From assembly GCF_016026235.1 (NCBI RefSeq), contig NZ_CP065613.1: DNA of 64,000 nt; one strand, written 5' to 3'. Position 1 is the first letter of the stretch; the number at the start of each line of letters is the position of its first letter. Source of the stretch: Escherichia coli (GTDB taxonomy: Bacteria > Pseudomonadota > Gammaproteobacteria > Enterobacterales > Enterobacteriaceae). The position numbers were made by a program. This document shows, in pieces, positions 47,201 through 50,200 of the stretch.

Positions 47201-50200
47201 ATTGTTCACCGCTAACCTCGATAAACTGCTCTCCGGCGGCTGGTTGCCATTGAGCCTCGGTACTGTGATGTTTATCGTGATGACCACCTGGAAGAGCGAG
47301 CGTTTCCGCTTGCTGCGGCGGATGCATGAACATGGTAACTCTCTGGAAGCGATGATTGCTTCGCTGGAGAAATCACCGCCTGTTCGCGTGCCCGGGACCG
47401 CGGTGTATATGTCGCGTGCAATCAACGTCATTCCCTTTGCGCTGATGCATAACCTTAAACATAACAAGGTATTGCATGAGCGGGTGATTCTGTTAACTCT
47501 GCGTACCGAAGACGCGCCATATGTCCATAATGTCCGTCGGGTACAGATTGAACAACTGTCGCCCACTTTCTGGCGCGTGGTGGCAAGTTATGGTTGGCGA
47601 GAAACGCCAAACGTGGAAGAAGTTTTCCACCGCTGCGGTCTGGAAGGATTAAGTTGCCGGATGATGGAAACCTCCTTCTTTATGTCGCATGAGTCGTTGA
47701 TCCTCGGCAAACGCCCGTGGTATTTGCGTCTGCGCGGCAAGCTGTACTTGCTGCTGCAACGTAATGCGCTGCGTGCACCAGATCAATTTGAAATCCCGCC
47801 AAACAGGGTTATCGAACTGGGTACTCAGGTCGAAATCTAACGCCAGACGCCTCCTTTCTCCATAAGGGGGCGTTTTTGTTTTCATGGTTAATCACCATGT
47901 AAAACGTTTCGAGGTTGATCACATTTCCGTAACGTCACGATGGTTTTCCCAACTCAGTCAGGATTAAACTGCGGGTCAGCGAAACGTTTCGCTGATGGAG
48001 AAAAAAATGAAAAAAAGGCACCGTTCTTAATTCTGATATTTCATCGGTGATCTCCCGTCTGGGACATACCGATACGCTGGTGGTGTGTGATGCTGGTTTA
48101 CCCATCCCCAAAAGTACAACGCGTATCGATATGGCATTAACCCAGGGTGTACCTTCTTTTATGCAGGTGCTGGGCGTCGTCACAAATGAAATGCAGGTCG
48201 AGGCTGCCATTATCGCGGAAGAGATCAAACAACATAATCCGCAACTCCACGAAACGTTGCTCACTCACCTTGAGCAGCTGCAAAAACACCAGGGAAATAC
48301 CATTGAAATTCGTTACACCACGCATGAACAATTCAAACAACAAACCGCAGAAAGTCAGGCGGTAATTCGCAGCGGAGAATGTTCTCCGTATGCGAATATC
48401 ATTCTCTGTGCTGGCGTGACGTTCTGAGGCCGTCATGGAAGCATTACTTCAGCTTAAAGGCATCGATAAAGCCTTCCCGGGCGTAAAAGCCCTCTCGGGC
48501 GCAGCGTTAAATGTCTATCCGGGCCGCGTGATGGCGCTGGTGGGCGAAAACGGCGCAGGTAAATCCACCATGATGAAAGTGCTTACTGGTATCTATGCTC
48601 GCGATGCCGGCACGCTTTTATGGCAGGGGAAAGAAACGACATTTACCGGGCCGAAATCTTCCCAGGAAGCCGGGATTGGGATTATCCATCAGGAACTGAA
48701 CCTGATCCCGCAGTTGACCATTGCCGAAAACATTTTCCTCGGTCGTGAGTTTGTTAATCGCTTTGGCAAAATTGACTGGAAAACCATGTATGCCGAAGCG
48801 GATAAATTGCTGGCTAAACTTAACCTGCGCTTTAAAAGCGACAAGCTGGTGGGCGATCTTTCCATCGGTGACCAGCAAATGGTTGAAATCGCCAAAGTGC
48901 TGAGCTTTGAGTCGAAAGTCATCATTATGGATGAACCGACCGATGCGCTGACCGATACCGAAACCGAATCCCTGTTCCGCGTCATCCGCGAACTAAAATC
49001 GCAAGGCCGCGGTATTGTCTATATCTCCCACCGCATGAAAGAAATCTTCGAGATTTGCGATGACGTTACCGTTTTTCGTGACGGGCAATTTATTGCTGAG
49101 CGCGAAGTGGCATCACTGACCGAAGATTCGCTGATTGAGATGATGGTGGGTCGCAAGCTGGAAGATCAATATCCGCACCTGGACAAAGCGCCGGGAGATA
49201 TCCGCCTGAAAGTCGATAATCTCTGCGGACCTGGCGTTAACGATGTCTCTTTTACTTTACGCAAAGGCGAAATTCTTGGCGTCTCTGGTTTGATGGGCGC
49301 AGGTCGTACCGAACTGATGAAAGTGCTCTACGGCGCACTACCGCGCACCAGCGGTTACGTCACCCTGGATGGGCATGAAGTCGTTACCCGTTCACCGCAG
49401 GATGGCCTGGCAAACGGCATTGTGTATATCTCCGAAGACCGTAAACGTGACGGTTTAGTGTTGGGCATGTCAGTAAAAGAGAACATGTCGCTGACAGCGC
49501 TGCGCTACTTCAGCCGCGCTGGCGGCAGTTTGAAGCATGCCGATGAACAGCAGGCTGTGAGTGATTTCATTCGTCTGTTTAATGTGAAAACACCGTCGAT
49601 GGAACAGGCAATTGGTCTGCTTTCCGGTGGCAATCAGCAAAAAGTGGCGATTGCCCGCGGTCTGATGACACGCCCCAAAGTGTTGATCCTTGATGAACCT
49701 ACCCGTGGCGTAGATGTCGGCGCGAAAAAAGAGATCTATCAACTGATTAACCAGTTCAAAGCCGATGGCTTGAGCATCATTCTGGTGTCATCGGAGATGC
49801 CAGAAGTATTAGGCATGAGCGATCGCATCATCGTCATGCATGAAGGGCATCTCAGCGGGGAATTTACTCGTGAGCAGGCCACCCAGGAAGTGTTAATGGC
49901 TGCCGCTGTGGGCAAGCTTAATCGCGTGAATCAGGAGTAAAAAAATGACAACCCAGACTGTCTCTGGTCGCCGTTATTTCACGAAAGCGTGGCTGATGGA
50001 GCAGAAATCGCTTATCGCTCTGCTGGTGCTGATCGCGATTGTCTCGACGTTAAGCCCGAACTTTTTCACCATCAATAACTTATTCAATATTCTCCAGCAA
50101 ACCTCGGTGAACGCCATTATGGCGGTCGGGATGACGCTGGTGATCCTGACGTCGGGCATCGACTTGTCTGTAGGTTCTCTGTTGGCGCTAACCGGCGCAG

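Follow-up and report, generated by a model that had tools for sequence, protein, structure and literature searches.

The rbsD start and its surroundings

The window analysed here is a 64,000-nucleotide stretch of an Escherichia coli genome (RefSeq assembly GCF_016026235.1, contig NZ_CP065613.1), and the features of the rbs region described lie on its forward strand. Within it, the gene order is kup-rbsD-rbsA-rbsC-rbsB-rbsK-rbsR, with rbsD as the first gene of the operon. kup ends at 47840, and its intrinsic terminator, a stem-loop and T-run identified by a terminator scan (47845-47885), sits just 5' of the rbs control region. This region holds an intact, perfect 20-bp palindrome, TCAGCGAAACGTTTCGCTGA (47976-47995), which we take to be the RbsR operator. 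Next to it is the rbsD Shine-Dalgarno sequence, GGAG (47997-48000), which is separated from the start codon by six A and is identical in 5,373 genomes. A simple scan detected no promoter for rbsD; this was to be expected with CRP-dependent control and carries no information. Downstream of rbsD are rbsA (48435-49940, 501 aa, with a GAGG of its own 5 nt before the start), rbsC (49945-50910, 321 aa), rbsB (50935-51825, 296 aa), rbsK (51951-52880, 309 aa) and rbsR (52884-53876, 330 aa). As read here, the promoter/operator region, the Shine-Dalgarno sequence, the remaining rbsD frame and rbsACBKR are all intact in the window.

The lesion is a one-base change in a homopolymer run. Reading the sequence directly, the rbsD start codon (ATG, 48007-48009) is followed by seven A (A7; 48010-48016) and then GGC, whereas the conserved allele has six A (A6), which form codons 2-3 (AAA AAA). 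From the ATG, translation gives a residual open reading frame of seven sense codons, MKKRHRS, ending in a TAA at 48028-48030 (48007-48030 overall). The frame from 48008 opens with TGA (48008-48010) and continues with the complete RbsD minus its Met, residues 2-139 and a stop codon (48011-48427; TGA at 48425-48427), otherwise undamaged. Translation thus confirms two points of a first-pass annotation of this DNA, namely that the start codon leads into seven A and a stop after seven codons, and that the RbsD N-terminus is encoded in another frame directly behind a TGA. Because the frame breaks after seven codons, the RbsD domain is not encoded in one open reading frame from a start preceded by a Shine-Dalgarno sequence. 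When the run is repaired to six A, the translation covers positions 1-138 of 138 of the Pfam family RbsD_FucU (PF05025; E = 5e-46), and RbsD matches the Salmonella RbsD 3E7N with E = 2e-78. E. coli RbsD and its Bacillus subtilis counterpart, 48% identical overall, share M1, K2, K3, L7, N8 and S9 as invariant residues.

Two codons shortly beyond the TAA are relevant to how this gene has been annotated. GTG 48047-48049, 16 nt past the stop, is the first canonical start in the displaced frame and would give a protein of 126 aa. The 20 nt 5' of it (TTAATTCTGATATTTCATCG) contain no purine-rich Shine-Dalgarno sequence, in keeping with the first-pass view that it lacks an obvious ribosome-binding site. 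The same view held that RbsD could begin only at this GTG. It is indeed the first canonical start, but an ATT at 48038-48040, 7 nt past the TAA, is also in the displaced RbsD frame and is the start used by PGAP. From it, GenBank and RefSeq call a 129-aa coding sequence named D-ribose pyranase, with EFK2890093.1 among the records of the exact product; in NZ_AP027217.1 the 129-aa product is annotated as non-pseudo (WP_038341695.1). The 126-aa product is called in 124 blocks of the collection. The 129-aa call hides the rbsD frameshift and, since it is made automatically under the name of the intact enzyme, pseudogene counts and metabolic models that rely on annotation of this kind will miss the lesion.

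Seven A is rare in E. coli and fixed in one lineage

Comparison with rbsD of related strains established six A as the norm and the extra A as a true departure from it. A 61-nt probe carrying A6 matched at 100% in 5,373 of 5,385 complete E. coli genomes, in agreement with the earlier statement that six A would make a normal start. Of 5,386 complete E. coli genomes, not one gave a 100% match to the A7 version of the probe (best matches 60/61, with one gap), a count that would miss any genome with A7 plus a SNP within the 61-mer. An A5 version matched a single complete genome at 100%. Across 601 nt (47850-48450), the extra A is the sole difference from many E. coli genomes; over 24 kb, the complete E. 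coli genome closest to the window is only 99.3% identical. An exact A7 45-mer had no match in GTDB contigs representing one genome per species, a set that does not include the source genome as a representative of its species. We found no description of the A7 allele in literature on rbsD with Shigella, pseudogene or frameshift, and a search on the phenotype of rbsD mutants gave no usable result.

One explanation for an allele of this rarity is a homopolymer error in the assembly of a genome that really carries A6. Garbled forms of the run (A5, AAAAGGAAG and others) are indeed numerous in public assemblies, in contigs where kup and ravA are broken too, and an IS4 copy in the window has another A-run length difference that is lacking in a near-identical relative. 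Against this explanation, we recovered six loci of the same lineage, 99.94-100% identical to the window, and each of them has exactly seven A. These loci are drawn from five or more assemblies or read sets (GCA_031665325.1, GCA_018228945.1, GCA_021505815.1, ERR3372598 and SRR17652784), whose independence is inferred from differing accessions and small sequence differences, and they include short-read-style 10-kb contigs from Logan. A7 is therefore present in the DNA of this organism beyond one assembly. The first-pass annotation had allowed for six A in the underlying reads; the assemblies and read sets of the lineage gave the opposite outcome at all six loci. Moreover, the genes of the window are full length except for one IS4 copy and a nonsense-mutated usher, and with its other genes intact the window is not a generally error-ridden assembly. 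An artefact is thus largely refuted and extremely improbable. Judged from the assemblies compared, the extra A is genuine and lineage-fixed.

The limited identity to the best complete E. coli genome had raised the possibility of a Shigella origin, which was set aside because NCBI assigns the proteins of the lineage to Escherichia coli and the window holds only two IS copies. The second A-run indel of the window lies in the IS4 copy, where the run is A5 (24467-24471); in a close relative, reached through a search with a fimbrial subunit, the IS4 copy is intact. As the indel is lacking in that relative, either a strain-level homopolymer error or real hypermutability is possible at this run. A search for lineage-wide occurrence of the truncated IS4 transposase matched only unrelated noisy assemblies.

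NCBI labels the proteins of the A7 lineage as Escherichia coli, and the exact RbsA of the window was found in 36 blocks of the collection. Among the A7 loci there are SNPs in rbsK and a 4-bp deletion in rbsB, so the lineage has gone on diversifying since the insertion and has not reverted. The deletion removes one GCCA unit from the (GCCA)3 repeat at 51481-51492 in a sub-branch of the lineage. This second lesion suggests continuing decay, not reversion.

The A-run is a recurrent slippage site

Strand slippage during DNA replication most likely converted A6 to A7 within the run encoding Lys2-Lys3. The first-pass annotation had pointed to such runs as slippage-prone, and the run has indeed mutated repeatedly: A7 also occurs, independently, in at least three other, unrelated Escherichia backgrounds. 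Locus L021 has 8-10 differences from A6 genomes compared with 28 from the window; L003 has 43 differences from an A6 genome compared with 93 mismatches to the window over the full alignment; and L016 belongs to a cryptic-clade Escherichia that is 95% identical. Slippage at the A-run thus recurs, though rarely, which makes the run a weak hot spot for mutation, not a switch by design.

The first-pass annotation had further suggested a reversible on/off lesion. Taken to its full extent, the A-run would be a phase-variable contingency locus, at which slipped-strand mispairing turns rbsD on and off at high frequency and the rbs operon with it through polarity. Consistent with this, homopolymer runs are prone to slippage, A7 has at least four separate origins, one complete genome has A5, and other slippage has occurred nearby, such as the (GCCA)3 deletion. 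However, tract length is nearly invariant across the species, with A6 in 99.8% of complete genomes, one A5 and no A7. Every recovered locus of the lineage has A7, and no A6 revertant appeared in the contigs read, although the lineage is old enough to have gained SNPs and a second rbs lesion. Contingency tracts are usually expected to span about 8 nt or more, and a tract of 6-7 nt is short for high-frequency switching. In addition, A6 simply codes for a conserved Lys-Lys pair, which B. subtilis RbsD shares. A contingency locus is accordingly very unlikely, and the idea of a reversible lesion is not supported.

Possible routes to residual RbsD

By normal decoding, A7 very probably abolishes full-length RbsD, which would make rbsD a young, ordinary pseudogene. 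Ribosomes would still start at the authentic ATG 48007 but would halt after seven codons, so that no full-length D-ribose pyranase is expected from standard decoding. The absence of decay in rbsACBKR within the window would also be expected if function were retained or the event were very recent, and some RbsD activity could persist through leaky +1 decoding or reinitiation.

The insertion created a heptamer, AAA-AGG-C (48013-48019), at which a +1 shift would yield exactly wild-type RbsD, making the allele a knock-down and not a null. Peptidyl-tRNA-Lys would slip from 48013-15 to 48014-16 while the rare AGG waits for its tRNA; GGC would then enter the A site and be read by abundant tRNA-Gly, giving the wild-type MKKGTVL... 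product. The heptamer does combine a P-site codon that can re-pair, a slow A-site codon and an abundant +1 codon, with AGG used 0.37 times and GGC 31 times per 1000 codons in 30 genes of the window. Ty1 CUU-AGG-C works by the same logic, frameshifting in E. coli is favoured by rare AGG/AGA codons, and for the thymidine kinase of herpes simplex virus (HSV) it is documented that low-level frameshifting can compensate for homopolymer indels (PMC5009743). An AAA AGG segment from pspD is also among the E. coli test sequences of a mechanism-based predictor (PMC2790909). Nevertheless, the shift site is a derived mutation and lacks the conservation of a programmed one, the heptamer being absent from 5,386 complete genomes. 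When a gene is expressed from the chromosome, the shifting caused by a single rare codon is usually very slight, and GFP reporters with poly(A) runs, in which the AGG context was absent, showed no detectable deletion-direction rescue with E. coli RNA polymerase (PMC6260861). We regard leaky recoding as unlikely.

An in-frame message could also arise if RNA polymerase skipped one A of the run. Bacteria are well known to show slippage on A/T runs (PMC5009743), but with E. coli RNA polymerase none was detectable on runs of fewer than eight A, and none of the poly(A) runs tested showed the deletion type (PMC6260861). A run of seven A is too short by this measure, and transcriptional slippage is a highly improbable source of RbsD.

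Alternatively, ribosomes terminating at TAA 48028 might reinitiate at ATT 48038 or GTG 48047 and produce an active pyranase of 129 or 126 aa. These restart codons lie within reach of the stop (7 and 16 nt), and PGAP labels the 129-aa coding sequence D-ribose pyranase. Termination-reinitiation without a Shine-Dalgarno sequence is known in bacteria, lacI restarts being an example, and Adhin and van Duin are said to have put forward a scanning model of reinitiation. Neither codon, however, has a Shine-Dalgarno sequence, and as a start codon ATT is very weak. The label is automatic and no proof of function, residue 1 is already part of the Pfam domain, and the N-terminal residues removed include the six named above as invariant between E. 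coli and B. subtilis. A structural model of RbsD from an 8-sequence alignment (moderate confidence; pLDDT 72.6, about 51-58 at the N-terminus) places residues 3-18 in the first helix, leading into the invariant G19-H20-T21-D22, and most of that helix would be lost on truncation. Since this model is of low confidence over residues 1-20, the structural argument on truncation is a weak one. A single-sequence AlphaFold model was unusable (pLDDT 42). Together, these points make an active restart product quite improbable.

Expected effects on ribose use and the rbsD message

If rbsD is a pseudogene, pyranase activity would be lost or strongly reduced in A7 strains. Ribose use would probably be slowed and not abolished, since the ring forms of ribose interconvert spontaneously. 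The early stop leaves ~400 nt of rbsD mRNA untranslated, including a C-rich, G-poor stretch (48213-48340). By way of Rho or RNase E, untranslated rbsD mRNA may reduce the expression of rbsACBK, and on this reading of the sequence polarity on rbsACBK is plausible.

The part of rbsD that is now untranslated also contains an apparent 15-nt perfect complement to the small RNA DsrA (48306-48320), given the DsrA sequence assumed here. This complement is unique in the window, had 0 matches in 100 shuffles and lies within the best local duplex. A duplex scan of the whole window with DsrA was too noisy to serve as evidence, with other segments outscoring this one. The rbsD mRNA is a DsrA/ArcZ sponge (bioRxiv 10.1101/2023.08.28.555190), and its DsrA-pairing region would be exposed in A7 strains. 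A more elaborate reading would make A7 a tuned-down allele, in which a +1 trickle depends on tRNA-Arg(AGG), the DsrA/ArcZ-RpoS input from ribose is altered and recurrent A7 is selected. We consider this distinctly unlikely.

Discussion

The A7 allele of rbsD is, in all likelihood, an ordinary pseudogene-making mutation and not a regulatory switch. The gain for general biology is small, amounting to another short coding homopolymer that acts as a weak hot spot and a further case of E. coli lineages readily losing parts of the ribose operon. With the lesion real and fixed, strains of this lineage are probably without normal ribose pyranase and may use ribose poorly, a trait that could serve as a lineage marker. 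A more interesting outcome would require +1 recoding at AAA-AGG-C together with a changed regulatory function for the untranslated rbsD mRNA.

Several known systems help to place the allele. Contingency loci, such as those of Haemophilus and Neisseria surface genes, likewise have a coding mononucleotide run whose length sets the frame. In contrast, the rbsD tract is short (6-7 nt) and invariant in 99.8% of complete genomes, its mutant length is lineage-fixed, and its product is a cytoplasmic sugar isomerase, not a surface structure. Translational restarts are documented for early nonsense mutations of lacI, and rbsD A7 shares with them an early stop, an in-frame GTG or ATT within 20 nt and a possible shortened protein. 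The lacI restart products are documented and partly functional, whereas those of rbsD are hypothetical and would lack conserved residues. Evolved E. coli B reportedly lost ribose catabolism through IS150-mediated rbs deletions (Cooper et al. in 2001). In both settings rbs function appears easily and repeatedly lost and dispensable under many conditions, but here the change is a single-base insertion and rbsACBKR are retained.

The AAA-AGG-C heptamer has the same architecture as Ty1 CUU-AGG-C and E. coli rare-arginine frameshifting sites, with GGC as the +1 codon (PMC5009743). Unlike the Ty1 site, it is an accidental by-product of the insertion, neither conserved nor selected, located three codons from the start and known from sequence alone. 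The 'savior' indel in the G-run of HSV thymidine kinase resembles rbsD A7 in being a one-base indel that involves a 7-nt homopolymer and nearly abolishes the product while possibly leaving a trickle (PMC5009743). For the viral gene, the selective benefit (drug resistance) has been demonstrated and the leak measured, whereas the rbsD allele is so far a sequence observation.

The allele agrees in its essentials with enterobacterial pseudogenes made by homopolymer slippage. As in those genes, a single-base indel in a short run causes an early stop, the rest of the gene is undamaged, the mutation is fixed in one clonal lineage and decay has occurred nearby, here as the 4-bp rbsB deletion of a sub-branch. 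Nothing essential sets rbsD A7 apart from this class; its particular feature is that the lesion falls in codons 2-3, so that authentic initiation is kept and only a 7-aa peptide is expected.

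An inserted adenine displaces the rbsD reading frame

By gene content, the window is the segment of the E. coli chromosome surrounding oriC, with the gene order yieE ... bgl ... pst, fimbrial operon, IS4, glmSU, atp, rsmG, mnmG, oriC, mioC, asnCA, viaA, ravA, second IS4, kup, rbsDACBKR, mdtD, yieP, rrnC. The origin (38940-39290, between mnmG and mioC) has ~38 GATC sites per kb versus 4.9 per kb window-wide, and DnaA-box matches at 39019, 39125 and 39199. At the head of the ribose operon, the rbsD initiation region is intact: a Shine-Dalgarno GGAG (47997-48000), six A and the ATG (48007-48009). 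Seven A (A7, 48010-48016) and then GGCACCGTT follow, and standard decoding from the ATG yields a 7-aa peptide, MKKRHRS, ending at TAA (48028-48030). The first-pass annotation was therefore right that an extra A puts rbsD out of frame. Translation likewise bore out its placement of the RbsD N-terminus one base later, directly behind a TGA, in a frame that runs to the normal stop at 48425-48427. The RbsD domain, which starts at protein residue 1 (Pfam match 1-138/138), lies in this displaced frame. Its first canonical start is indeed the GTG at 48047 (126 aa, no Shine-Dalgarno upstream), and an ATT at 48038 is also in frame. rbsA, rbsC, rbsB, rbsK and rbsR are all full length. The window has 20 homopolymer runs of at least seven bases; one of them, also A7 (49939-49945), crosses the rbsA stop/rbsC start junction.

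The seven-A allele is fixed in one lineage

A 61-nt probe carrying A7 had no 100% match in 5,386 complete E. coli genomes (best, 60/61 with one gap). The A6 version matched perfectly in 5,373 of 5,385, so that six A is the normal allele, as first proposed; an A5 version was found in one complete genome, GABEEC10. Across 601 nt, from the control region through the whole of rbsD to the rbsA start, the extra A is the sole difference between the window and many genomes, so the lesion is one recent insertion into a gene with no other damage.

Among complete RefSeq E. coli genomes none comes close to the window (99.3% identity over 24 kb at best), and relatives were therefore sought through its exact RbsA protein, present in 36 collection blocks. 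Loci from GCA_031665325.1, GCA_018228945.1, ERR3372598 and SRR17652784 were 99.94-100% identical to the window over ~7 kb, and all carried A7. A 129-aa rbsD product led to two further loci with A7, one in GCA_021505815.1 and the other elsewhere in GCA_031665325.1. NCBI labels the lineage proteins Escherichia coli. Short-read contigs of the lineage extend only ~10 kb, from IS4 to rrnC, because of the IS4 between ravA and kup. This intact copy (~44400-45827; transposase ORF 44467-45813) is missing at the site in most E. coli, but strain 401651 (NZ_CM129040.1), at only 99.3% identity, carries it at the identical position.

That the extra A is an assembly or sequencing artefact is essentially excluded: judged from assembled contigs, A7 recurs in several lineage assemblies and read sets with differing SNPs and indels. 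The lineage genomes are not mutual copies. One has two rbsK SNPs, and a five-sample sub-branch (SRR17652784 and four others) has lost one unit of the rbsB (GCCA)3 repeat (51481-51492), a deletion that frameshifts and so breaks rbsB. The insertion is therefore older than the diversification of the lineage, and the rbsB deletion suggests that decay of the ribose operon continued after the rbsD lesion. We read rbsD in this lineage as a young pseudogene created by a real, lineage-fixed and ordinary homopolymer frameshift, presumably through replication slippage.

The first-pass annotation had also raised a reversible on/off lesion, which the data do not support. Phase-variable contingency loci are expected to show tract-length polymorphism, but here A6 occurs in 99.8% of complete genomes and A7 in all recovered lineage members. 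No reversion appeared in any lineage contig recovered; the lineage instead gained a second rbs lesion. The tract is also short, and simply codes for a conserved Lys-Lys.

Other disrupted genes in the window

A Stg/Lpf-like chaperone-usher fimbrial operon (18337-23319, between pstS and glmS) encodes a major subunit, chaperone, usher and adhesin-like subunit. An in-frame stop (20543-20545) splits the usher into 473-aa and 353-aa ORFs, with no indel relative to the intact 840-aa usher of CP024273.1. The stop is common to the window and GCA_031665325.1, and is therefore a second lineage-fixed pseudogene. Between this operon and glmS lies another IS4 copy (23597-25023), which differs from the ravA-kup copy only by one A missing from an A6 run (24467-24471), the second A-run indel within the same 64 kb as rbsD. 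Its transposase is split into ORFs 23664-24497 and 24494-25009. In GCA_031665325.1, a near-identical relative, this IS4 is intact with A6, so the indel arose either by mutation in this strain or through faulty polishing of a repeated element.

Recurrence and annotation of rbsD frameshifts

Truncated products of 126 or 129 aa occur in many public assemblies, many of them plainly noisy, with garbled runs and broken kup and ravA. Clean A7 cases in other backgrounds number three: GCA_025118495.1 (28 differences from the window, 8-10 from A6 genomes); ERR13763668 (43 differences from an A6 genome; 98.3% identity to the window, with 93 mismatches over the full alignment); and the cryptic-clade Escherichia sp. 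E2586 (2960-2985 of the retrieved locus), only 95% identical to the window and with A8 in place of A7 upstream of the ATG. Other N-terminal lesions were the loss of 5 bp and the gain of a G. Together, these cases indicate that the run is a recurrent but rare mutation site, although the three are singletons in which sequencing error is possible.

Neither GenBank nor RefSeq flags the lesion in the lineage. The deposited gene is a 129-aa 'D-ribose pyranase' starting at the ATT (EFK2890093.1 and others; window 48038-48427). The identical product, WP_038341695.1, is a normal CDS in NZ_AP027217.1 (4274978-4275367), where the N-terminal frameshift is a different one, and the exact product occurs in 45 contigs of the collection. 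PGAP thus calls N-terminally frameshifted rbsD a normal CDS instead of a pseudogene, making the lesion invisible in annotation.

Predicted consequences and routes of residual expression

Pyranase activity would be lost or greatly reduced. From the general function of RbsD, ribose use would probably be slowed and not abolished, because ribose changes ring form spontaneously and neither transporter nor kinase is damaged. Some 400 nt of rbsD mRNA would go without translation from the main start, among them a C-rich, G-poor segment (48213-48340). Within that segment lies a 15-nt perfect complement (48306-48320), unique in the window, to the sRNA DsrA. The match is consistent with a preprint in which rbsD mRNA acts as a DsrA/ArcZ sponge, reducing RpoS translation with Hfq and without need of RbsD protein (10.1101/2023.08.28.555190). 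Without its cover of ribosomes, the mRNA could therefore differ in stability, in sponge function and in its polar effect on rbsACBK. The one non-trivial possibility, an improbable one, is low-level +1 recoding together with altered rbsD-mRNA regulation.

Rescue by transcriptional slippage is unlikely, since slippage by E. coli RNA polymerase is undetectable below eight A, and poly(A) gave none of the deletion type (PMC6260861). A shortened RbsD could arise by reinitiation at ATT 48038 or GTG 48047, 7 and 16 nt downstream of the stop. That such an enzyme would function is doubtful, because the RbsD proteins of E. coli and B. subtilis share M1, K2, K3, L7, N8 and S9, and residues 3-18 are modelled as the first helix, running into the invariant GHTD motif (moderate confidence overall, low in this segment). 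A +1 ribosomal slip is mechanistically attractive: the insertion makes AAA-AGG-C, on which peptidyl-tRNA-Lys could re-pair perfectly one base downstream, AGG belongs to the rarest class of codons in the window's genes (0.37 per 1000, versus 31 per 1000 for GGC), and a shift would restore the exact wild-type RbsD. We consider physiological relevance improbable and the site accidental. AAA-AGG-C resembles the Ty1 site CUU-AGG-C, and also the tandem rare arginine codons AGG_AGG and AGA_AGA, at which frameshifting is reported in E. coli (PMC5009743; PMC2790909).
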